Below are positions 3,982 to 54,515 of a stretch of DNA of 64,000 bases, in pieces. A program made the translations under genes and the position numbers. Under the pieces are notes generated by a model that made no database searches, was not told where the DNA came from, and worked only from the letters and a program-made list of their open reading frames with translations. Location of the stretch: contig JACJZW010000001.1 in assembly GCA_020635355.1 (NCBI GenBank), positions 369,633 through 433,632 of the forward strand, given 5' to 3'. Each line of letters begins with the position of its first letter. Positions within the stretch are counted from its first letter, which is position 1. The stretch comes from Flavobacteriales bacterium (GTDB lineage: Bacteria > Bacteroidota > Bacteroidia > NS11-12g > UBA9320).

Positions 3982-3989
3982 TAGGTTTG
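3982..3989 (+). promoter_or_regulatory. Bacteroidota sigma-A -7 box (TAGGTTTG) upstream of the first MscS gene
   Basis: TAGGTTTG matches the TAnnTTTG consensus and lies 24 nt upstream of the ATG at 4014. An identical box precedes the paralog at 5231-5238. Confidence 0.5.
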
Positions 3990-4013
3990 TTTAACCACTT
4001 AACTAAAACAGAT

Positions 4014-4823
4014 ATGGATACCGAAAAAATTATTTCACAGCTCATTGAGATGAGTGTGAATTATGGCCCAAAACTTCTGGGAGCCATAGCGGTTCTGGTC
4101 ATCGGAACCTGGGTGATCAAGTTCCTGGTCAAGGCTATGGGTAAGATGCTGAAAAAATCCGGCATCGACGATTCTCTTGCCTCCTTTCTGCGCACCATGG
4201 CGCACACCCTCATGCGTGTTCTGTTGGTGCTGAGCGTCCTAAGTATGCTGGGCATCGAAATGACGTCATTTATCGCCATCCTGGGCGCAGCCGGACTGGC
4301 CGTGGGTATGGCCCTGAGTGGTACCCTTCAAAACTTCGCCGGAGGGGTGATCATTCTCATATTCAAACCTTACAAGGTGGGTGATGTGATCGAGGCAAAT
4401 GGATATAAGGGAGTGGTTCAGGCCATCCAAATCTTTAACACCATTCTTAAAACGCCAGCCAATCAAACCGTGATTATTCCGAACGGTGAAATGTCGACCT
4501 CCTCCATGGTAAATAATACAATGGGTTCCGATATGTGTGTGGAATGGGTGTTTTCGATCAGTTATGGCGATTCATTTCCCAAGGCTAAAGAGGTGATTTT
4601 GAATCATCTTCGCTCGGATTCCCGTGTGCAACAGGACCGACCACCCTTCGTAGCCTTATTAGCCATGGCCGATAGCTCCATTAACATTGTCACCCGCGCC
4701 TGGGTGAATCAGGATGATTACTGGGGAGTGTTTTTCGATATGAATGAACGCATTTACACCTCCTTCCCTCAAAACGGATTATCCATTCCTTTTCCTCAAA
4801 TGGATGTTCACGTTCATAATTGA
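4014..4823 (+). CDS. Small-conductance mechanosensitive channel (MscS family)
   Basis: Three N-terminal TM helices are followed by an MscS beta-domain block (KPYKVGDVIEANGYKGVVQAIQIFNTILKTPANQTVIIPNGEMSTSSMVN). The ORF track start at 3987 is a TTG. The ATG at 4014 aligns with the paralog N-terminus. Confidence 0.85.
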   Translation: MDTEKIISQLIEMSVNYGPKLLGAIAVLVIGTWVIKFLVKAMGKMLKKSGIDDSLASFLRTMAHTLMRVLLVLSVLSMLGIEMTSFIAILGAAGLAVGMALSGTLQNFAGGVIILIFKPYKVGDVIEANGYKGVVQAIQIFNTILKTPANQTVIIPNGEMSTSSMVNNTMGSDMCVEWVFSISYGDSFPKAKEVILNHLRSDSRVQQDRPPFVALLAMADSSINIVTRAWVNQDDYWGVFFDMNERIYTSFPQNGLSIPFPQMDVHVHN

Positions 4824-4825
4824 GA

Positions 4826-4868
4826 TGCGGGATTCGGGATTCGGGATGCGGGATTCGGGATTCGGGAT
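4826..4868 (+). repeat. (GGGATTC)n heptamer tandem array, 6 G-triplets (G-quadruplex consensus)
   Basis: The sequence gcGGGattcGGGattcGGGatgcGGGattcGGGattcGGGattt lies immediately after the MscS stop codon. Confidence 0.9.
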
Positions 4869-4874
4869 TTTTAA

Positions 4875-4980
4875 TGATTGATTGTTGATGTTGAATGTCT
4901 AATCGAGGACAAAAATGTTTTTGCACTTTGATCTTTGAGTTTTGATCTTCCTTAGTTTAAACGCAAAGCCTCTCAACAAA
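4875..4980 (+). repeat. Direct repeat unit, copy 1 (~106 bp)
   Basis: It runs from tgattgattgttgatgttgaatgtc to tttttgcactttgatctttgagttttgatcttcctt.gtttaaacgcaaagcctctcaacaaa. It is near-identical to 5015-5121. Confidence 0.85.
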
Positions 4981-4983
4981 TTC

Positions 4984-5007
4984 GGGATTCGGGTTTCGGG
5001 ATTCGGG
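4984..5007 (+). repeat. (GGGATTC)-like array, 4 G-triplets
   Basis: The sequence is GGGattcGGGtttcGGGattcGGG. Confidence 0.9.
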
Positions 5008-5014
5008 ATGTTGG

Positions 5015-5121
5015 ATGACTGATTATTGATGTTGGATGTCGAATCGGTAACAATAATGTTTTTGCACTTTGATCTTTGAGTTTTGATCTTCCTTGGTTTA
5101 AACGCAAAGCCTCTCAACGAA
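5015..5121 (+). repeat. Direct repeat unit, copy 2 (~107 bp), followed by a degenerate third partial copy (5122-5215)
   Basis: This is about 90% identical to 4875-4980. The TTGCACTTTGA motif recurs at 4921, 5071, 5168 and 17068. Confidence 0.85.
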
Positions 5122-5230
5122 TTTGGGATGTTGGATTTGAGTTGCCGTATTGAGATCATAGATCTTTTTGCACCTTGATCTTTGCACGTTGAGTTTTAAT
5201 GGTCAATTCGCAATTCAACTTCCTATTCCA

Positions 5231-5238
5231 TAGGTTTG
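5231..5238 (+). promoter_or_regulatory. -7 box TAGGTTTG upstream of the MscS paralog
   Basis: This is the same octamer as at 3982. It lies 10 nt upstream of the ATG at 5249. Confidence 0.45.
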
Positions 5239-5248
5239 CACCCGATAT

Positions 5249-6076
5249 ATGACACTTGACACAGAACTTATTCTTACCAAAGGCGCGGAAATCATTCTTG
5301 AATTCGGGCCAAAATTAATTTCCGCCATTCTGGTTCTCATTGTAGGATTATGGGTGGTCAAATTACTCGTAAAGGGCTTTAACCGGTTGATGGAAAAATC
5401 GTCTCTGGATGATTCCCTCAAGCCATTTTTACGTTCCTTGGTCCGGACCATTCTGCGTATCCTCCTCGTTCTTACAGCACTGAGTACGCTTGGGGTGGAA
5501 ATGACGTCGTTCGTAGCCATTTTAGGTGCCGCAGGTTTGGCCGTTGGTATGGCCCTAAGTGGCACCCTTCAGAATTTTGCCGGAGGAGTGATCATCTTGA
5601 TTTTTAAACCATTCAAGGTGGGCGACTTCATTGAAGCACAGGGATATTCCGGAACGGTTAACTCCATTCAAATTTTCAATACCGTTCTCAAAACACCGGA
5701 CAATAAAACCATCATCATTCCCAACGGTGGCTTATCAACAGGATCAATGATCAATTATAATGAGGAGGCTACCCGACGAGTAGATTGGGTTTTTGGCATT
5801 GCCTACGGCGATGACTATGATCGAGCCGAATCCGTGATTCGCGATATGATGATGCGGGATGATCGTGTTCTCAAGGATCCGGAGGTGTTTATCGCGCTGA
5901 AGGAACTGGCCGATAGCTCTGTGAATCTTGTAGTACGAGCCTGGGTAAACACACCTGATTATTGGGGCGTATTCTTCGATACAAACCAACAGGTGTACAA
6001 AGAATTCCCAAAACACGGCTTGAACATTCCATTTCCACAAGTGGATGTTCACATGCACCAGAACAGCGGGAACTAA
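5249..6076 (+). CDS. Small-conductance mechanosensitive channel (MscS family), paralog of 4014-4823
   Basis: It is collinear with the upstream paralog at roughly 60% identity. Shared blocks include SLDDSLKPFLRS..., GAAGLAVGMALSGTLQNFAGGVIILIFKPFKVGD and IPFPQVDVHMH. Confidence 0.85.
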   Translation: MTLDTELILTKGAEIILEFGPKLISAILVLIVGLWVVKLLVKGFNRLMEKSSLDDSLKPFLRSLVRTILRILLVLTALSTLGVEMTSFVAILGAAGLAVGMALSGTLQNFAGGVIILIFKPFKVGDFIEAQGYSGTVNSIQIFNTVLKTPDNKTIIIPNGGLSTGSMINYNEEATRRVDWVFGIAYGDDYDRAESVIRDMMMRDDRVLKDPEVFIALKELADSSVNLVVRAWVNTPDYWGVFFDTNQQVYKEFPKHGLNIPFPQVDVHMHQNSGN

Positions 6077-15803: not shown

Positions 15804-16258
15804 TACGACATGCCGTTACTGGTGTACTCCGGAGCACCTTTCACCAATCGCTCCCGGTATCCTCCAATGCCTATTCCGGAATTGATTTCCCAATGTTTTT
15901 TGATGCGTATGATGTGTCCATATCCCGCATAACCCTGTGTTATTCGTAATTGATTTTGCTGGGCATTTTGATAGGAAAAGAAATCCGTACGGATAAACAC
16001 CTTTCCAGATGAGCTATCCGGTTTATAATCAATCGTAGTGGACCACCCTCCTTTATTCAAGTTGTTGGAATACAGGTAGTTCATCCCACTGAAAATTCGA
16101 ATGTGGTCGAATTTGTATCCCACTCCAAGGGACGTCCCCAAACCGGCATAGGTTAGCGACGTTTCAGTTTGAACGGCATATTGTGCCGATGCGTCATCCG
16201 CAGAAAATCCGGCTGATAGCAACCCGCACCACAACACTATGCTCCGAATTATCTTCAC
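15770..16258 (-). CDS. Small outer-membrane beta-barrel protein (OmpX/OmpA-beta-barrel-like), hypothetical
   Basis: A signal peptide appears when the gene is started at the GTG at 16258 (MKIIRSIVLWCGLLSAGFSADDASAQ). The pattern is beta-strand-like and ends in ...GFSYWQ. The start is uncertain: the ORF track gives a GTG at 16285. Confidence 0.45.
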   Translation of the reverse strand: MKIIRSIVLWCGLLSAGFSADDASAQYAVQTETSLTYAGLGTSLGVGYKFDHIRIFSGMNYLYSNNLNKGGWSTTIDYKPDSSSGKVFIRTDFFSYQNAQQNQLRITQGYAGYGHIIRIKKHWEINSGIGIGGYRERLVKGAPEYTSNGMSYCISLGFSYWQ

Positions 16259-16301
16259 TTCGGGTGCGAATGTACGTTTCACCACGAAATCACAAACGGG
16301 G

Positions 16302-16309
16302 TATTTTTG
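16302..16309 (+). promoter_or_regulatory. -7 box TATTTTTG upstream of the DUF2188 gene
   Basis: It matches TAnnTTTG and lies 15 nt upstream of the ATG at 16325. Confidence 0.45.
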
Positions 16310-16324
16310 TACAAAACAGTTGCT

Positions 16325-16639
16325 ATGGCCGACATCCGAACAGGAAAATTCTGGACTGATTTACTTAAAAAACTGCTTGGCCAGTTTTTAAAGAGCAAGG
16401 GATTCTCTACACGCGCCAATACCCACAATCAGCACGTTGTTCCCCACGAAGATGGTTGGGCCATTCGCGGTGAAGGAAATGAACGTTTGTCAGGTGTGTT
16501 TAACCGACAAGAACAGGCTATTGACCGAGCACGGGAAATTGCATTGAATTACGGCTCGGATGTAATTATTCACAGGGAAGATGGAACCATCCGGGATCGG
16601 GTATCACCAAGGGAAACGAGGCGAAGACGAAGGAGATAG
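16325..16639 (+). CDS. DUF2188 domain-containing small protein
   Basis: The DUF2188-like core is present (HVVPHEDGWAIRGEGNERLSGVFNRQEQAIDRAREIALNYGSDVIIHREDGTIRDR). The ORF track start at 16307 is a TTG inside the promoter box. The ATG at 16325 is used here. Confidence 0.6.
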   Translation: MADIRTGKFWTDLLKKLLGQFLKSKGFSTRANTHNQHVVPHEDGWAIRGEGNERLSGVFNRQEQAIDRAREIALNYGSDVIIHREDGTIRDRVSPRETRRRRRR

Positions 16640-17091
16640 TTTTTAATTCTGAGTGTTTAATGTTGAATTATTACTAGTACTGCCTGCTTAATTTGAACGA
16701 ACAAATTGAAAAAGATTCGGGATTCGGGATTCGGGATGCGGGATTGTAAGTATGAAAACGGTCAACGTTTTTTTAGGCATGCACAATGCACAAACCGCTA
16801 ACTGTTCACCCTGACCGAGTGAAACGAGCGTCACGGGCTAACCGCTAACCACTACCTATTTTTCCTGCCTGAGCGTAGCGAACGTCATCACAGATTCGGG
16901 ATTCGGGATTCGGGATTCGGGATTTTTCATATTGATCCACTACCTGCTAACTGCTAACTGCTAATTGCAAACAATTCACCCTACTTGAGCGTAGCGAACG
17001 ACATTTCAGATTCGGGATTCGGGATGCGGGATTCGGAATTCGGAATTCGGGATTTTGCACTTTGAACTTTGCACTTTGATCTATTACAAAT
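16640..17091. repeat. Repeat-rich intergenic region: three (GGGATTC)n arrays, a (TGCTAAC)n array and a triplicated ~20-bp motif
   Basis: (GGGATTC)n arrays with G-triplets lie at 16718-16741, 16897-16920 and 17013-17050. The sequence ctgctaactgctaactgctaattgc lies at 16940-16965. TGAGCGTAGCGAACGTCA-like motifs lie at 16815, 16870 and 16986. The motif TTGCACTTTGAACTTTGCACTTTGATC lies at 17065-17090. Confidence 0.85.
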
Positions 17092-18075
17092 CTATTTCAA
17101 GGATTTTCGGCGCCAGCCAATCAGCCCTATGCACACGAAATCCGAGTCTACCGATGATGCTCCGGTGAGATCTTCTATTCGGAAACATTCAAAGGTTTGT
17201 GTATTCACCATCGAATCAGCCAGAATAGTCACAACCGTTCCAGCTTTAAGGGCTTCTTTATACTGGTTTGACGTAAAACCATAAATGATGTCAGGATTGC
17301 TCAACCAATCACCTGAATGTGGCTCTTGAAAGATATCCATGTCGTATTGAATGGTATCGGTCCATATCGGACAAAAGGTTGAAGGAATCGTTGTTCCCTG
17401 CCAATAACGAAGCGTCTCAATCATCGAAACGTGAGTGGTTGAATCAAAATATCTGGAGTATCCGGACCGATAGGCCAAGGTTTGAGGCTTATTGTCCGGG
17501 AAGCTTTTCCGAAAGGAATAGTTTTTCATCGTGTAGATCGAATTCATGCAACACGGGTGGCTTTCTATCTGAAGATCGATGGCTGAATCCTCATGTATCC
17601 GATGGATACCGGTAACCCTCCCCAAATCCTTGATCATCAAATGGAGGGCGGTATCCGCATGATTCAAATAGAGAGCGGTGCGAATGGATTCAATCCCTTC
17701 CGGGATGGAATCTTGATAAATGATATCCAGAAAACCATCTGCATTGATATCCAGGACATGGAAACTATTGAATCGATGCCCGGGATTCTCCGTAGGTATA
17801 AACAAATCCATATAGGTGTGCCTCCGTATCCTTTGAATCAGCTTAATCTTCACCGATCTATCCAGGGATGTTTCCCAATCCGTCCAGGAAAAGGTCGAAT
17901 TACCATGAGGATGCAGATAACTTCGAAATTCATTTTTTAGCACACAGGATTCGTTGGTTTGGGTCGTACGGATCGAAGGGATGGTATTGGGAAGCGTGTT
18001 GTCCTCCCTTCTATTTTCAAGAAAGGAACACGTCAACAAGAGGAATCCCAATAGGGCGTAGATATACAATTTCAT
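17092..18075 (-). CDS. Hypothetical secreted/lipoprotein with an FG-GAP-like repeat
   Basis: There is a signal peptide (MKLYIYALLGFLLLTCSF). One VLDINADGFLDIIYQD motif is present. No other recognisable domain. Confidence 0.35.
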   Translation of the reverse strand: MKLYIYALLGFLLLTCSFLENRREDNTLPNTIPSIRTTQTNESCVLKNEFRSYLHPHGNSTFSWTDWETSLDRSVKIKLIQRIRRHTYMDLFIPTENPGHRFNSFHVLDINADGFLDIIYQDSIPEGIESIRTALYLNHADTALHLMIKDLGRVTGIHRIHEDSAIDLQIESHPCCMNSIYTMKNYSFRKSFPDNKPQTLAYRSGYSRYFDSTTHVSMIETLRYWQGTTIPSTFCPIWTDTIQYDMDIFQEPHSGDWLSNPDIIYGFTSNQYKEALKAGTVVTILADSMVNTQTFECFRIEDLTGASSVDSDFVCIGLIGWRRKSLK

Positions 18076-39642: not shown

Positions 39643-39819
39643 CCATCTTCCGAATGCACACCGTCCTGTATGGTTTACCCTGAGTTCCATGTTCGTGTTT
39701 TCACGTCAATACCTGGATAACGGGAAACGTAAACGGTTTGTGATGCGTGGTGTACTAGTTTGAGCACCTTTCTTCGAGTTGGGTGTCATGAAATCTTTGT
39801 AAATACTTCAAACCCGCAT

Positions 39820-39960
39820 AAAAAAAGCCTGAACACTGCGTGTCAGGCTTGAGAATCTGTGCACCCGAGAGGATTGCTCCCTCACCCATGCTCTGCTCCA
39901 CCCGGTCGCGAACTGCGTTTCGAACCCCGCCAACCTTCGTTCGAACCTCTCGGGAGGAAT
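39820..39960 (-). repeat. Tandem repeat copy A: pseudo-tRNA fragment (3' 16 nt of tRNA-Arg) plus terminator hairpin
   Basis: It contains TGCACCCGAGAGGATT (39860-39875), identical to the tRNA 3' end. It also contains the terminator hairpin AAGCCTGACACGCAGTGTTCAGGCTT plus a T7 run (minus strand). The ~85 bp between has TTCGAACC T-loop-like motifs but no complete tRNA fold. Confidence 0.8.
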
Positions 39961-40104
39961 AAAAAAAGCCTGAACACTGCGTGTCAGGCTTGAAAATCTG
40001 TGCACCCGAGAGGATTGCTCCCTCACCCATGCCCTGCTCCACCCGGTCGCGAACTGCGTTTCGAACCCCGCCAACCTTCGTTCGAACCTCTCGGGAAAAA
40101 CCAT
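39961..40104 (-). repeat. Tandem repeat copy B (about 97% identical to copy A)
   Basis: It has the same structure as copy A. TGCACCCGAGAGGATT lies at 40001-40016. Confidence 0.8.
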
Positions 40105-40135
40105 AAAAAAAGCCTAAACACTGCGTGTCAGGCTT
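40105..40135 (-). terminator. Rho-independent terminator of the tRNA gene
   Basis: On the minus strand the hairpin is AAGCCTGACACGCAGTGTTTAGGCTT followed by TTTTTTT. Confidence 0.75.
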
Positions 40136-40144
40136 GAAAATCTG

Positions 40145-40218
40145 TGCACCCGAGAGGATTCGAACCCCTAACCCCCAGAGCCGAAATCTGGTATTCTATC
40201 CAGTTGAACTACGGGTGC
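40145..40218 (-). tRNA. tRNA-Arg (anticodon UCG read from the sequence)
   Basis: A manual cloverleaf was built from GCACCCGTAGTTCAACTGGATAGAATACCAGATTTCGGCTCTGGGGGTTAGGGGTTCGAATCCTCTCGGGTGCA. It has a 7-bp acceptor stem, a D-arm GTTC/GAAT, an anticodon stem CCAGA/TCTGG with loop TTTCGGC (anticodon TCG), a TTCGAAT T-loop and discriminator A. CCA is not encoded. Confidence 0.75.
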
Positions 40219-41322: not shown

Positions 41323-41325
41323 CGG

Positions 41326-41397
41326 TTCAGAAGTTCAAGGGTTCAGAGGTTCAGTAGTTCAAGGGTTCAAGAGTTCAAGAGTTCAGAGGTTTGTGTT
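41326..41397 (+). repeat. (GTTCARRG)n octamer tandem array, ~9 units
   Basis: The array is ggttcaga agttcaag ggttcaga ggttcagt agttcaag ggttcaag agttcaag agttcaga ggtttgtg. It lies directly after the TDO stop. Confidence 0.9.
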
Positions 41398-41418
41398 AGG
41401 ACTCCGTACTCCGTAATC

Positions 41419-41445
41419 TCGAATCCCGAATCCCGAATCCCGAAT
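41419..41445 (-). repeat. (GGGATTC)n array on the minus strand (3 G-triplets), preceded by 2x ACTCCGT
   Basis: The plus strand reads tctcgaatcccgaatcccgaatcccgaatc. It abuts the pirin gene 3' end. Confidence 0.85.
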
Positions 41446-42585
41446 CTATCCCTTCTCCTCCAATCTGCCATCCGCATGTTTGGCAAATCGCCCGCGTTCC
41501 CGGTCATGAACCTGATCTGTTCTGGGCCATGGCCAACCACCAAATTTGGTGTCGTGATAATCCTGAAACGCCTTATTGATTTCCTCCTTGGTATTCATCA
41601 CAAACGGGCCATACTGAATAACCGGTTCGCCAATTGGCCTACCTTGTAGCATTAAAATTTGTGATTCATGATCCGGATTCGCGATTGTTAGATCATGTGT
41701 TGGATCCACCCGAATTTCGTGGTATTTAGGAATGGTCTCCCCGGCAATGGTGATTTGTTCACCCTCATAGAAATACAGCATTCGATTCACCCCTTCCACG
41801 GATTTTGGTAAGGTCCAGGTAGCCCCAGGCTCGAGGGTAATGTTCCAAATAGCAATGTGATTATTCACCTCAGATGCCCAGGAATTGGGAGGTGGCGATG
41901 GTGCCTTATGCGTATCCAATTTGCCGGCAATAACCTCAACGGTGGTTTTCTTTCCATTGGCATCGGTATGTTGGTAGTTGGGAATGCTATCATTCCATAG
42001 CATCTTGAAATGTGCATCCACCATTTTGTTCTTCTTCGGAAGGTTCAGCCAAATTTGAAACAGTTCCAATGGGTTGTCTTGATCCTTCTTAATGAGAGGA
42101 AACATTTCGGAGTGCTGCACGCCTCCACCAGCCGTCATCCACTGTACATCCCCATTTCCATATCTTCCGGCAGCGCCTAACGAATCGGCGTGATCCACGA
42201 TGCCCTTTCGAACCACCGTTACGGTTTCAAAACCACGATGAGGATGGCCGGGAAAACCCGGTACCGACTTTCCGTGGTACATTCGGAATCCATCCTTGAT
42301 GATGAAGTCGTCGCCTAAATGTCGGCCCACATGGTGCTTTGGATCCGGAGCCATTTGATCATTTCCATTTGGGAAGTAATCTTCATGATGCACGCAGAAA
42401 AGAAACGGATCCAGGGTGTCCCATTGGAATCCCAGTGCCTTCATTCCCAAAACAGATTTTTTGTTGGCATCCGGATTGGAATCATCGGACCCAAAAATCT
42501 TCCCTAAACCTTGAAAAGGTGTCCACAGTAATGCGGAGGCTCCAAGGGTAAGCTTGCTCAAAAAAGATCGTCTGTTTGCCGCCAT
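41446..42585 (-). CDS. Pirin-family bicupin (quercetin 2,3-dioxygenase-like) with a Tat signal peptide
   Basis: The pirin N-domain motif is present (GFPGHPHRGFETVTVVRKG...GDVQWMTAGGGVQHSE). A twin-arginine signal is present (MAANRRSFLSKLTLGASALLW). The start was moved to the ATG at 42585. The ORF track gives 42744. Confidence 0.8.
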   Translation of the reverse strand: MAANRRSFLSKLTLGASALLWTPFQGLGKIFGSDDSNPDANKKSVLGMKALGFQWDTLDPFLFCVHHEDYFPNGNDQMAPDPKHHVGRHLGDDFIIKDGFRMYHGKSVPGFPGHPHRGFETVTVVRKGIVDHADSLGAAGRYGNGDVQWMTAGGGVQHSEMFPLIKKDQDNPLELFQIWLNLPKKNKMVDAHFKMLWNDSIPNYQHTDANGKKTTVEVIAGKLDTHKAPSPPPNSWASEVNNHIAIWNITLEPGATWTLPKSVEGVNRMLYFYEGEQITIAGETIPKYHEIRVDPTHDLTIANPDHESQILMLQGRPIGEPVIQYGPFVMNTKEEINKAFQDYHDTKFGGWPWPRTDQVHDRERGRFAKHADGRLEEKG

Positions 42586-47092: not shown

Positions 47093-47097
47093 GAATA

Positions 47098-47131
47098 GGT
47101 TCAGAGGTTCAGAGGTTCAGGGGTTCTAGGG
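47098..47131 (+). repeat. (GGTTCAGR)n octamer array (left arm of an inverted pair)
   Basis: The array is ggttcaga ggttcaga ggttcagg ggttctag. It begins 6 nt after the DPP-IV stop. Confidence 0.9.
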
Positions 47132-47177
47132 TAGACAGGTATCTGGTCAGGAATGCCTGAAAAAGGTGCAGAGCATA

Positions 47178-47543
47178 TTATTTTCTCTCTTTTGGATGTA
47201 AGGATTCCAGATAACGCATCAATTTGAGTATTTTTCTTTTGAGTGCTTCTAGTTTACTGAATAGTTGGGCGCCGTCCAGTCCATATAGGCCATGTGCTAT
47301 GATCAATTGAGTATCCAGCTCAACCAGTGAACCGAGAGCATAGTTCAGGAATTTCAGATACTCCTTATCTCCCTTTCTGGCCGCTCCCTCGGCAATATTA
47401 GATGGAATGGAAATGGCAGATCTTTTCATTTGGGAAGTGAGGGTATACTTTTCTTCCGATGGAAGATTTTTTGAGAATTGATAGACATCAATGACCAATT
47501 CAATGGCGATCTTCCAAATATCCAGGTTTTTGTGTGTTGACAT
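47178..47543 (-). CDS. Four-helix-bundle protein (PF05635; 23S rRNA intervening-sequence protein / Avd-like family)
   Basis: It is 121 aa. Characteristic blocks are present: NLDIWKIAIELVIDVYQFSKNLPSEEKYTLTSQMKRSAISIPSNIAEGAAR and KEYLKFLNYALGSLVELDTQLIIA. Confidence 0.8.
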   Translation of the reverse strand: MSTHKNLDIWKIAIELVIDVYQFSKNLPSEEKYTLTSQMKRSAISIPSNIAEGAARKGDKEYLKFLNYALGSLVELDTQLIIAHGLYGLDGAQLFSKLEALKRKILKLMRYLESLHPKERK

Positions 47544-47667
47544 TCAGTGAATTTCCTGGTTTGTCCGTAAAGAATAGCGCATCCCAAGCACATTAAACGC
47601 TTAGTTGGGTCGAACGATTCGAAATCGGCTTCAAACGATCCATTAGCCAAACATTTGAATAACACAA

Positions 47668-47694
47668 ACCTCTGAACCCCTGAACCTCTGAACC
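47668..47694 (-). repeat. (GGTTCAGR)n array, inverted copy (right arm)
   Basis: The plus strand reads acctctgaacccctgaacctctgaacc. This is the reverse complement of ggttcagaggttcaggggttcagaggt. Confidence 0.9.
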
Positions 47695-47838
47695 ACACAT
47701 TGAGGTCAATGAAATAGCTTTTGTAGTGTTCAACTTTCCCCAATTCCATAGGATTTCTCATCACCCCTCACCCATCACACATCACCCCCATACGCCACAC
47801 ATTAAAATTTCATAGATTTGGCGTTCAATCAATTCTAA

Positions 47839-51995: not shown

Positions 51996-54515
51996 ATGAG
52001 AGAAGACTTCAATAGTTTAAATGAAGAGGAACAGAGTCGCATTAATGTGCGATCGCTGCTTCTATTGGTCAGGGTATACTGGCATCTTTTTGCCATTTCG
52101 ATAGCCTTCACACTTTTTGGAGCCTACATGGTCAATAGGTATAAAACACCTAAATACCTGATGAAAAGCCAGGTTCTTCTCAGCAATGAAAAAGAAGGAC
52201 GAGAAGGAATGGAAATCATTGGTGGTCAATCAATGGGCGGTGCCTTTAACCCATGGGATCCAACCTTTGTTAACGACAAAATTCAAATTATCAAGTCGTT
52301 CCGCTTTTTAGAACCGGTTATTGATCAACTGGGCTTCGTTAATTCATATTACGTGCAGGGTGATGTTAAAATTTCAGAACAGTACTCCGTACCATTTGAT
52401 CTGAAGTTTGATACTAAAAATGACAAGGCACTACAATACCAATACACGTTTAATTTCCGCGAAAACGAAGTATTGGTAATCGGTGAAAAAGAATCCCGTA
52501 ACATCTTTGAGTTTTCACTTAAACCCGGCCAGGTATATCAGCACAAGTATTTTTCGATGGGTATCTCACTGACAGAAGAATATGCCTCGTCCGGTGGATC
52601 CTGGAAAGAATTGGTGGGTACGCGATTCATTTTCAAAAAATCATCGTTAAAATCTGTGGTATCCCGCTATAAGAGTCGATTAAAAGTTGAATCGGTAAAG
52701 GATACCAAGGCCATCGAGTTAAGCATCGAGGAAGAGAATCAAGAAAAGGGAATAGCCCTGTTGGATTCTGTTGCGAATGCCTTTGTGAGAAAGGGATTGG
52801 AAGATAAAAATCAATCCTTTGAAAAAAGTATTGCCTTTATCAACTCTGAACTGGAACGGGTTACGACGTTTTTGAATGACCTGGAAGAAAAATTTCAAAC
52901 CTTCAAACAGGATAAGCGAGCTATATCACTTACTGACCAAACTACGGCATTAATACATGAATCAGCCGAAGTAGAAGCTGAGCGCTATCAACAGTTGCTG
53001 GCCTTGAAGAGCATTGAAAGTCTCAATCAATACCTCAAGACACATGATGATCTGTCGACTTTGGCCCCCGCCACGTTTGGCATTTCTGAACCCTTGTTAG
53101 TGCCACATATCAACAATGTAGCTGCACGATATCAAGAATGGAAGGGTATATCGAATTCTTTCCAACCATCGTCTCCGCAATATCAAAAAGCACTCAAAGC
53201 ACTGAATATTGCCAAGGCATCTTTGGAGGAAAATGCCCGAAACGTTCAAAATCAAATGAATACCGTTCTTGGAGAATATGACAAACGCATTCGTGAGTAT
53301 GATCTGAGGTTGGAGAATGTTCCATTGATTGAACGTAATCATGCCGGGATCAAGCGACAAACAGAAATTCAGGAAAAAATTTATGTGCTGTTGCTGGAAA
53401 AAAAGTTCGAATACGAAATAGCCAAGTCAGGTAATAGAAGTGATTACTCCATCTTAAACAAGGCTTATGTAGCCAAACAAACCAGTCCTCAAAAAGGCCG
53501 AAATTATACCCTCGCGATCTTGCTGGGTTTGATTATTCCAGCTATTTACCTTTTTCTCAAGATATATTTTGATAACAAGGTTAGATCCAGAGAGCAGATT
53601 GAAAATGGATCTGATGTGCCATTTCTTGCTGCGATACCTCACCACAGTGGTGAAGAGCAACTTGTTTTTCAAACCAACTCTAAATCCATTACGGCGGAAT
53701 CCTACAGAAACCTGAGGACTTCCATGAGCTATATGCTCGCATCGGATGATAAACCCAAAACAATTCTAGTTACCTCTACCATTAGTGGGGAAGGTAAAAC
53801 TTTTTGTACGCTGAATATCGGCCACGTTCTTAGCCTCTCTGGTAAAAAAGTGGTGGTTCTTGGTCTGGATCTTCGAAAACCAAAACTGCACCTTGAGTTC
53901 AATCTCAAAAACAATGTAGGTTTGAGTAATTACCTGGTTGGAAAGCTTTCCTTGGATGAGATCATCTTTAAAACTCCTTTGGATAATGTGGATATCATTC
54001 CTTCAGGTCCCATCCCTCCTAACCCTTCCGAACTCATTCTGAGCAACCGGATGATAGAGCTTCATGAACAATTGAAGAATCAGTATGACTACATTTTGTT
54101 GGATACGGCTCCTCTGGGTTTGGTGACCGATGCGGTAGACCTCATGAGAATTTCTGATTTATGTGTCTACATCATGCGTGAGGGATATACGCAGGTAAAT
54201 GCCATTGGATTCCTCAATGAATTTTACGTCAAAAAGGACATTAAGAACCTTGGTGTTGTTCTCAACGATAGCAAGTTCTCCGGCATCAAATACGGTTATG
54301 GCTATGGCGGTGGCTACGGTTATGGCTATGGCTACGGTTATGGTTATGGTTATGGTTATGGCTATGGTTACGGATATGGTTATGGCTATGGCAGTGGATA
54401 TGGATATGGTGGTGCCAAACAGGGCTATGGGTATTATGTGGATAATGAGGAAACCTCACGCCCATTCTTGATGAAGGTATTCGACCTGCTCAAAAAGCTA
54501 TATAAACGCTCGTAG
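51996..54515 (+). CDS. wzc: Polysaccharide co-polymerase / tyrosine autokinase (Wzc-like: Wzz domain + CapB-type P-loop kinase) with an expanded (GY)n tail
   Basis: Two TM segments flank a ~430-aa coiled-coil periplasmic domain. Cytoplasmic Walker A (STISGEGKTF) and Walker B (ILLDTAPLG) are present. The C-terminal ~50 aa read KYGYGYGGGYGYGY...GYGYY with about 21 Tyr. Confidence 0.85.
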   Translation: MREDFNSLNEEEQSRINVRSLLLLVRVYWHLFAISIAFTLFGAYMVNRYKTPKYLMKSQVLLSNEKEGREGMEIIGGQSMGGAFNPWDPTFVNDKIQIIKSFRFLEPVIDQLGFVNSYYVQGDVKISEQYSVPFDLKFDTKNDKALQYQYTFNFRENEVLVIGEKESRNIFEFSLKPGQVYQHKYFSMGISLTEEYASSGGSWKELVGTRFIFKKSSLKSVVSRYKSRLKVESVKDTKAIELSIEEENQEKGIALLDSVANAFVRKGLEDKNQSFEKSIAFINSELERVTTFLNDLEEKFQTFKQDKRAISLTDQTTALIHESAEVEAERYQQLLALKSIESLNQYLKTHDDLSTLAPATFGISEPLLVPHINNVAARYQEWKGISNSFQPSSPQYQKALKALNIAKASLEENARNVQNQMNTVLGEYDKRIREYDLRLENVPLIERNHAGIKRQTEIQEKIYVLLLEKKFEYEIAKSGNRSDYSILNKAYVAKQTSPQKGRNYTLAILLGLIIPAIYLFLKIYFDNKVRSREQIENGSDVPFLAAIPHHSGEEQLVFQTNSKSITAESYRNLRTSMSYMLASDDKPKTILVTSTISGEGKTFCTLNIGHVLSLSGKKVVVLGLDLRKPKLHLEFNLKNNVGLSNYLVGKLSLDEIIFKTPLDNVDIIPSGPIPPNPSELILSNRMIELHEQLKNQYDYILLDTAPLGLVTDAVDLMRISDLCVYIMREGYTQVNAIGFLNEFYVKKDIKNLGVVLNDSKFSGIKYGYGYGGGYGYGYGYGYGYGYGYGYGYGYGYGYGSGYGYGGAKQGYGYYVDNEETSRPFLMKVFDLLKKLYKRS
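54292..54410 (+). repeat. Hexanucleotide (TAYGGN)n microsatellite, ~20 units, encoding the Wzc Tyr-Gly tail
   Basis: The array is tac ggt tat ggc tat ggc ... tat gga tat ggt. It is in frame. The alternative-frame ORF 54199-54471 (MAMAVATV...) is an artefact of this repeat. Confidence 0.9.

Follow-up and report, generated by a model that had tools for sequence, protein, structure and literature searches.

A compound island of heptamer arrays in the 3' spacer of two convergent genes of a Bacteroidota genome

What is the repeat-dense island of 452 nt which separates two convergent genes at positions 16640-17091 of the stretch of DNA described here, and how was it made? The stretch as a whole, referred to below as the window, is 64 kb long and belongs to a low-GC (45%) metagenome-assembled genome (MAG) of the Bacteroidota. 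A sequence-only reading of the window had proposed that G-rich heptamer arrays of the GGGATTC type and a second module, TTGCACTTTGA, travel together as a composite interspersed repeat, possibly with an origin like that of MITEs (miniature transposable elements with inverted repeats). We consider it likely instead that the island is a compound microsatellite/minisatellite in the non-coding 3' spacer of the convergent genes, made by slippage and unequal recombination. Arrays of 7-base units would lengthen, shorten and mutate through slipped-strand mispairing at replication, a process helped by the ability of the GGGATTC G strand to fold back or to adopt a G-quadruplex. Blocks of about 116 bp, each composed of a CTGCTAA array, a unique 18-mer and a GGGATTC array, would duplicate and be reshuffled by unequal recombination between arrays. 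The G strand of the dominant unit runs on from the upstream gene's 3' end, as in the (GGGANTN)n class described below. In our view the island is neither a dedicated gene nor a transposable unit.

Arrays were called by Tandem Repeats Finder (TRF) and by direct reading of positions 16300-17400, and TRF arrays fill about 43% of the island. On the plus strand it starts with a non-repetitive leader of 74 nt (16640-16713, by direct reading), between the stop codon of the DUF2188 gene and the first array. This is array C1, (GATTCGG) x4.6 (16714-16745, TRF), with four GGG tracts and one GGGATGC variant. A small hairpin, AAAACG-GTCAA-CGTTTT (16755-16774, by direct reading), and a T7 run follow; it is a weak candidate for an intrinsic terminator of DUF2188 and was missed by the consensus terminator scan. 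Next come a TRF mini-array (ATGCACA) x2.1 (16779-16793) and a unit recognised by eye (16795-16836, CCGCTAA..TTCACCCTGACCGAGTGAAACGAGCGTCAC), which resembles a degenerate first copy, A'-B', of the higher-order unit that makes up most of the remaining island.

This higher-order unit is composed of A (a GCTAACC/CTGCTAA array), B (the unique motif TGAGCGTAGCGAACG(T/A)CA) and C (a GGGATTC array), and a repeat-family search found it as two 88-nt copies with 81% identity and 116 nt spacing (repeat family D2). Copy 1 (16837-16924) contains (GCTAACC)x2, the first exact B motif TGAGCGTAGCGAACGTCA (16870-16887, motif search) and array C2, a perfect (GATTCGG) x4.6 with four GGG tracts (16893-16924, TRF). 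Array A, (CTAACTG/CTGCTAA) x4.7 (16940-16972, TRF), leads into copy 2 (16953-17040), where the second exact B motif TGAGCGTAGCGAACGACA (16986-17003, motif search) precedes array C3, (GATTCGG) x6.6 (17009-17054, TRF), with one GGGATGC and two GGAATTC units. Array D (17054-17082), made of the units TTTGCAC, TTTGAAC, TTTGCAC and TTTGATC and called within this range by TRF as (TTTGCAC) x3.6 at 17054-17078, adjoins the 3' end of the minus-strand gene; an 11-nt unit x2 was further called by TRF at 17079-17100.

The three GGGATTC arrays, the TGCTAAC-type array and the terminal TTTGCAC-type array of the sequence-only reading were thus all recovered by TRF, and well over chance. With one mismatch or less, GGGATTCGGGATTC has 17 matches in the window against 0.07 expected and TTGCACTTTGA has 7 against 1.69, a number reached in 0/100 shuffles. 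The exact copies of TTGCACTTTGA are at 4921, 5062, 17055 and 17069, so that its reported presence in the spacer between two MscS genes holds for the first two. The triplicated 20-bp motif was accepted in part: there are two exact copies of TGAGCGTAGCGAACG (16870 and 16986), but the third near 16818 was missed even at three mismatches or less and has 10/15 bases of the B core, its whole A'-B' unit having 20/31 bases equal to 16974-17004 (by eye). The G-tract counts of 4, 4 and about 5 stand for C1 and C2, with four each; C3 has four GGG tracts and two broken GG tracts in its GGAATTC units. Inverted repeats within 16600-17120 amount to 0 pairs. The island is no assembly artefact, since two independent assemblies (L243 and L244) match 16640-17120, that is the island and 29 bases past its end, at 481/481 bases.

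Variation of the locus was followed in ten further contigs whose DUF2188 protein is identical. L243, L244, L245 and L246 agree with the window over all of the island that each one covers, and the leader is kept, SNPs aside, across contigs L242-L249. The length and composition of array 1 are not constant: L242 ends with additional GGGATGC units in it, and L247 and L248 carry a longer array 1 of other composition, plus SNPs. A rearranged haplotype is found in L249, a k=141 assembly with SNPs of its own, which reads leader, array 1 (units GATGCGG, GATTCGG, GATTCGG and a final AATT), (TTGCACTTTGATC)x2, TTTTCAAATTGATCCACTACC and then (TGCTAAC)n; its order is that of a C array joined to a D array, followed by the linker that in the window follows C2. 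Contigs end inside the arrays in 6/10 of the strain set, as do both Logan contigs coming from the opposite side (L001 and L002), which stop within array C3 at 17010. The locus therefore shows a conserved position, different versions of array 1 and one rearranged haplotype, which is the length variation that Rehm et al. described for their repeats, and it behaves as a variable-number tandem repeat whose changes come from slippage of units and from recombination among the higher-order units. For practical use, islands of this kind offer hypervariable markers to type strains with, and short-read assemblies break at them predictably.

The dominant unit relates the island to a known class. Rehm et al. 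(2015, PLoS One, PMC4692102) reported Xanthomonas arrays of the (GGGAATC)n and the heterogeneous (GGGANTN)n type and, for Nostoc, arrays of GGGGA(C/T)T; Bacteroidetes are not mentioned in that paper. The Xanthomonas genomes have 186 and 183 arrays, mostly non-coding and with a preference for four units, and 70-75 inverted pairs per genome. The G strand is the coding strand right after stop codons, the majority of the arrays are transcribed, oligonucleotides fold in vitro as K+-dependent G-quadruplexes (circular dichroism spectroscopy), and 83% of the arrays are at equal position in two species with varying lengths (PMC4692102). By sequence, and in every feature open to comparison, the island's GGGATTC arrays belong to this quadruplex-capable heptamer class, which is thereby extended from Xanthomonas and Nostoc to a Bacteroidota MAG that is Saprospiraceae-like. 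They share GGGA at positions 1-4 and T at 6 (GGGATTC x4.6, x4.6 and x6.6, with GGGATGC and GGAATTC variants), and they are heterogeneous non-coding arrays of about four G-tracts (4, 4 and 3+1 in the island) whose lengths differ between close relatives at a conserved site. The G-quadruplex (G4) character noted in the sequence-only reading is borne out as potential, with canonical G3-N1-7 x4 motifs in the island satisfied only in C1 (16719-16742) and C2 (16898-16921); 4 of the 5 canonical motifs of the window come from GGGATTC arrays. Differences are also present. The unit is GGGATTC and not GGGAATC, so that the G-strand RNA is self-complementary via G.U pairs; three arrays lie in this one spacer, mixed with other heptamers in a 116-bp higher-order repeat, with no inverted pair and with a compound architecture of unusual clarity; and the host is a low-GC Bacteroidota MAG.

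The orientation of the arrays also follows the class. All 6 GGGATTC arrays of the window are intergenic and are found within 3 spacers, and the first G array of each of these three islands has its G strand on the coding strand, 0, 0 and 75 nt past the stop codon. A scan of species-representative genomes with (GGGATTC)x3 gave at least 119 loci, and all figures on other genomes rest on those listed. Hosts among them are Xanthomonas, Lysobacter, Stenotrophomonas, Rhodanobacter and Luteimonas (Lysobacterales), Acidobacteriota, Planctomycetota, Bacteroidota (Phaeodactylibacter, Saprospiraceae, Lewinellaceae, Chitinophaga), Nostoc, Vibrio, Aeromonas and actinobacteria. Variant units beside the GGGATTC arrays include GGGATTG, GGGAGTC, GGGACTC, GGGATCC, GGGGTTC and GAGATTC, pairs of the form (GGGATTC)n-spacer-(GAATCCC)n are a frequent arrangement, and in Bacteroidota relatives several heptamer types are adjacent to one another. 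Polarity was tested with genes called crudely on these loci. Among the 58 arrays that are intergenic, the nearest gene toward the 5' side of the G strand lies at a median distance of 16 nt and that toward the 3' side at 94.5 nt, and the 5' side is the nearer one in 44 arrays versus 14 (p = 1e-4). Of 42 arrays lying 50 nt or less from their 5'-side gene, 27 are on the same strand, past the stop codon, and 15 on the opposite strand, beside the start codon. Neutral slippage alone hardly accounts for both the polarity toward gene ends and the presence of GGGATTC in many phyla. As a separate observation, arrays of (GAATCCC)n may directly adjoin a start codon, L103 being one example among the listed loci: in this Lysobacterales MAG (about 4700-4780) (GAATCCC)4 stands directly before the ATG of an AccC-like gene (MLDKVVIANRGEI...), leaving no Shine-Dalgarno space.

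Other classes of tandem heptamers fit less closely. MacGregor (2015, PMC4679880) described TAACTGA direct repeats in Beggiatoaceae, cyanobacteria and Bacteroidetes. Most of these stand directly upstream of a start codon, in "forward" orientation, and a role in translation was proposed for them. In the same paper spacers of Gramella, Aequorivita and Elizabethkingia carry several heptamer arrays which close relatives lack and at which draft assemblies break. These multi-heptamer Bacteroidetes spacers are the same phenomenon as the island, which also combines several heptamers and has contigs ending inside it, and whose A array, (TAACTGC)n, is one base off TAACTGA. The TAACTGA system proper is different: TAACTGA itself is absent here and the arrays lie downstream of both genes, so that the island is not a member. 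The category LSSR (long simple sequence repeats) of Mrazek, Guo and Shah (2007), as presented in PMC4679880 and PMC4692102, comprises 5-11-nt units among which heptanucleotides predominate and which are attributed to polymerase slippage. Non-coding heptamer arrays longer than chance agree with it, but as presented there it is a statistical category and not a sequence family, and polarity and compound architecture are not covered. In the listed GGGATTC locus of Nostoc calcicola (L089) a CCCCAGT array lies beside the GGGATTC array. Heptamers such as CCCCAGT belong to the STRR (short tandemly repeated repetitive) sequences of heterocystous cyanobacteria, which form dispersed intergenic arrays with several unit types per genome, sometimes adjacent. 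The STRR are defined by cyanobacterial units, and the island differs from them in unit sequence and in phylum.

Could the island nevertheless be a copy of a mobile composite, as the sequence-only reading suggested? The two other islands of the window bear on this question. The first (4824-5192, plus strand; TRF, motif search) lies between two tandem MscS genes identified by Pfam; its (GGGATTC)n begins at the base right after the stop codon, and it contains a 141-bp higher-order unit x2.1 with TTGCACTTTGATC modules. The other (41324-41446; TRF, direct reading, Pfam) lies between convergent genes, with a (GGTTCARR)n array beginning 2 nt past the plus-strand stop and a minus-strand (GGGATTC)n that overlaps the stop codon of a pirin-like gene. 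GGG tracts number 6 and 4 in the former and 3 in the array of the latter. In 4824-5192, 16714-17082 and 41324-41446 (minus strand), as well as in L249, an array of the TTTGCAC/TTTGATC/TTGAAC type comes after (GGGATTC)n on one and the same strand, so that the order C then D is found in 3/3 islands and in the rearranged haplotype. Joint movement of the G-rich heptamers and the TTGCACTTTGA module would produce such an order. It would also agree with the junction GG(G/A)ATTTTGCACTTTGA, found in the window and again in L249, and with the 18/18 equal bases at the edge of the GGTTCAGA array at 41381-41398 and 47660-47677. However, the distance from C to D is not constant (0, 33 and about 51 nt) and no unique sequence is common to the islands (blastn-short), only tandem arrays and a 15-19-nt TTTGCACTTTGATC piece giving matches. 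The composite pattern of GGGATTCGGGAT, a gap of 1-61 nt and TTGCACTTTGA matches islands 4824-5192 and 16640-17091 and has 0 matches in the metagenome contig collection, which is evidently without the source organism, and both TTGCACTTTGA and the B motif GAGCGTAGCGAA are absent from all 119 listed GGGATTC-bearing loci of other genomes. The phage collection has no match to the island, the plasmid collection has pure heptamer arrays only, in one Xanthomonas and one Burkholderia plasmid, and there is no transposase near the island.

MITEs and REP-type (repetitive extragenic palindromic) repeats are likewise short, non-coding, intergenic, multi-copy and assembly-breaking. The island differs from them in having no terminal inverted repeats, no palindrome and no conserved unique core; no target-site duplication was detected and no syntenic empty site found. 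A MITE-like composite was accordingly rejected as a candidate, there being no terminal inverted repeats and no conserved non-tandem core with defined ends, and we hold joint movement as a MITE-like interspersed repeat to be very improbable. The co-occurrence of the G arrays with TTGCACTTTGA is real and lineage-specific, without the hallmarks of MITEs. The contrary description, slippage products without shared modules, fits by half, since the modules are slippage arrays but do recur together, and only in this lineage.

Some side observations belong to these sequences. The MscS paralogues (3987-4823 and 5249-6076) are tandem and co-directional with a 425-bp repeat island between them, and the second has a Bacteroidetes-type -7 box (TAGGTTTG, 5231-5238) just upstream. 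The 14-mer of the B motif, GAGCGTAGCGAACG, has at least 120 matches in metagenome contigs, in unrelated contexts and none beside a GGGATTC array; their frequency is about what chance would give for a 14-mer at that database size. About one tenth of them lie in a hairpin-type repeat, 'GTCATyCy...'. This 'GTCATyCy-GAGCGTAGCGAACG' repeat occurs in soil and freshwater metagenomes (L148:7477-7592, with tandem 34-bp copies, L160, L159, L196, L228 and L238) and seems to be a small family of intergenic repeats in its own right.

Against an origin by slippage and recombination several points have to be set. The recurrence of the order C then D in three islands and L249 is not predicted by pure independent slippage, and may point to exchange between islands or to some constraint common to them. 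Slippage and recombination are inferred and were not seen directly. The variants of L242, L247 and L248 are known from contig ends only and may be partly assembly noise. In the other genomes, 47/113 arrays were called intragenic by the crude open reading frame caller, which left the polarity test with 58, although these calls are probably due to over-calling in high-GC genomes. Lastly, the run length of G-tracts has its mode at 4 in the listed loci (44/118 arrays, versus 25 with 3), a peak that is confounded by the search pattern, which demanded three full units.

The main rival, which is compatible with the microsatellite reading, is a role at the RNA 3' end. The G-strand arrays would act as G.U hairpins or RNA quadruplexes, often before a U-rich stretch (GGGAUUUUU..., GGGAUUUUGCACUUUG...), and would terminate transcription, or keep 3' exonucleases off the upstream mRNA and act as a buffer where transcription converges. 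Folding predictions (ViennaRNA) agree with this as far as single arrays are concerned. GGAUUC is self-complementary through G.U pairs, and predicted energies are -7.4 kcal/mol for (GGGAUUC)4 and -15.5 kcal/mol for (GGGAUUC)6, versus -8.4 kcal/mol for the quadruplex of four units. For GGGATTC the competing G.U hairpin is predicted to match or exceed the quadruplex in stability; the Xanthomonas unit GGGAAUC is predicted to fold mainly as quadruplex. Of the two strands, folding is predicted for the G strand alone, with hairpins of about -8 to -20 kcal/mol for the arrays of the window (-20.4 kcal/mol for C3) and 0 to -0.4 kcal/mol for the complementary strand. By eye, array hairpins run into T4-T5, with C2, C3 and the first array of the MscS spacer (4824-4869) leading straight into T runs. 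The position of the G strand on the coding strand past the stop codons of the window would suit such a role, as would the equal polarity across phyla and in the Xanthomonas and Nostoc repeats, the majority of which are transcribed (PMC4692102).

At the level of the whole locus the results are less favourable to a 3'-end role. The island folds with no extra stability over shuffles (z = +0.38 on the plus and +2.54 on the minus strand), the consensus terminator scan was at background with 3 sites versus 1.7 expected and none at the arrays, and Rfam gave no match in the island at the gathering score nor at E up to 1. Three serial arrays would be redundant for termination, and Rehm et al. (PMC4692102) identified no function or regulatory role. 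The 15/42 gene-near arrays that adjoin an opposite-strand start are left unexplained by a 3'-end role. We regard this role as rather unlikely to be the explanation of the island. If the arrays have a function, it would be no more than modest and would act at the 3' end of the RNA, by a hairpin or quadruplex of the G strand in the 3' untranslated region.

Variation of unit number among strains also raises the question of a switch, either by phase variation or by a platform for protein binding, in which unit number would control a neighbour gene. For direct repeats of heptamers, binding of S1, Csp or Csr-type proteins has been suggested (PMC4679880). The island is, however, located 3' of both convergent genes, outside promoter and reading frame, and scans for sigma-70 and for Bacteroidetes-type -33/-7 promoters gave nothing convincing in it. 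Rehm et al. saw the repeat-associated genes distributed over functional classes and considered phase variation unlikely (PMC4692102). A switch of this type is to be regarded as extremely improbable.

A different link is suggested by the genes for 23S rRNA intervening sequence (IVS) proteins (IVP), of which the window carries one. The minus-strand 23S_rRNA_IVP gene at 47178-47543 (PF05635, four-helix bundle, 121 aa, Pfam 1.4e-32) lies between an octamer array (AGGTTCAG)x3.8 (47097-47126), which begins 5 nt past the stop of a 728-aa peptidase gene, and an inverted partner array (AACCTCTG)x3.5 (47667-47694). The inverted arms of this locus (47097-47694) are 28 nt long and 93% complementary, and a further array, (CATCACC)x4 (47759-47787), is near it. 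The same architecture was found elsewhere. In Xanthomonas codiaei (L038:5208-5646) the IVP gene is located between carA and carB, with (GGGACCS)n inverted and arms of 32 nt (97%); between cysD and cysN (L257:1404-1923 and L258) it has (GATCAGTATG)n inverted, with arms of 18/18 up to 26 nt. In L259:1364-1973 (L259-261) it stands between a Por_Secre_tail gene and RNase Y, with (GATCAGTRTR)n inverted and arms up to 75 nt; in a Deferribacteraceae contig (L263:1427-1927) between an epimerase and an NTP transferase gene, with (GTGAGAA)n/(TTCTCAC)n inverted and arms of 39 nt (85%); and in L264:1404-2050 between the genes for an OMP decarboxylase and an AI-2E transporter, with (CGTGACG)n/(CGTCACG)n inverted, as read by eye. 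In L262:1445-2002 (CACGTMT)n is present on both sides in direct orientation, with no inverted pair.

Tandem arrays thus bracket the IVP gene in 7/7 independent loci examined (window, L038, L257/258, L259-261, L262, L263 and L264). In 6/7 the arrays are inverted, each with the G-rich array first, and the unit sequence is different in every genome. Several of these loci are inside operons (carA-carB, cysD-cysN, sugar-nucleotide genes). The bracket resembles, by analogy, the intervening sequences of rRNA, where the open reading frame lies within a stem of flanking inverted sequence. No mention of this array-bracketed architecture was found in the literature searched; according to one paper, cas operons frequently have IVP genes interspersed in them.

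Is the island then a gene-less or decayed relative of such an IVS-like cassette, with its cargo lost or rearranged? Besides the 7/7 loci, the GGTTCARR arrays of the window's IVP locus are also found beside the GGGATTC array in 41324-41446, and the arrays adjoin their flanking genes as the brackets of an insert would. The island's arrays are, however, direct only and the inverted pair is absent. A tblastn search with 120 IVP proteins found no IVP remnant in the three GGGATTC islands (best E = 0.07 over 10 aa), so that we treat an IVP link to the island as hypothetical, and about 0.9 Mb of listed GGGATTC-bearing loci contain 1 IVP gene, 2 kb from the array. Descent of the island from such a cassette is accordingly very unlikely. 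A more general idea, for which we also see little probability, is that polar arrays including GGGATTC could be cis elements of a widespread IVS-like cassette, of which islands of the 16640-17091 type would be recombined, cargo-less descendants. If this were true, inverted arrays with the G-rich one first would bracket either an IVP gene or just a short spacer, with insertion between genes or within operons, the arrays would form a register-tolerant stem processed as are rRNA intervening sequences, and the 70-75 inverted heptamer pairs of each Xanthomonas genome would represent the cassette in miniature. The polarity of the arrays and the IVP bracket deserve further attention. Should the polarity be due to a function at RNA 3' ends or to a connection with IVP cassettes, these repeats would form a common, unannotated layer of bacterial intergenic organisation.

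The genes on both sides of the island are convergent, as had been noted. The upstream one (16325-16639, plus strand, stop TAG at 16637-16639) encodes a DUF2188 protein, an identity backed by Pfam (PF09954, 8.1e-22). Its 104-aa product is identical to P0001 (NCBI MCB9239806.1), which makes ATG 16325 the likely start. DUF2188 relatives at 66-71% identity occupy other gene contexts; P0009 and P0006 are not syntenic and their loci are without arrays, and a syntenic empty site was not found. The downstream neighbour (17092-18075, minus strand) is an open reading frame for an orphan putative lipoprotein of 327 aa, with a lipobox-like LLTC visible by eye. It is present too on the Logan contigs L001 and L002. 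With zero Pfam matches and zero homologues found, the label "FG-GAP-like" given to it by the sequence-only reading had to be dropped.

Upstream of this pair, comparison with the strain contigs gave an observation on the surrounding genome. L243, L244 and L246 are 100% identical to the window over DUF2188 and the island, L243 and L244 also into the start of the lipoprotein gene, but have 33-43 mismatches in the 300 nt right upstream of DUF2188, within a 171-aa gene (compared over 15886-16324). Such mismatches beside fully identical sequence suggest a recombination boundary at the start of DUF2188.

Two further repeats are present in the window. At 39817-40218 a tRNA-Arg(TCG) (40144-40218, minus strand) has after it a tandem pair of 141-bp units which share 95% identity. 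Each unit begins with the last 19 or so nt of the tRNA and ends with a hairpin and an A/T run, and the units comprise a segment of about 95 nt with tRNA-like GGTTCGAA motifs and a closing CCCGAGAGG/CCTCTCGGG stem; ARAGORN and Rfam called a single tRNA in this region. The other is a hexamer array, (TATGGC) x18.8 with 78% matches, at 54297-54409.

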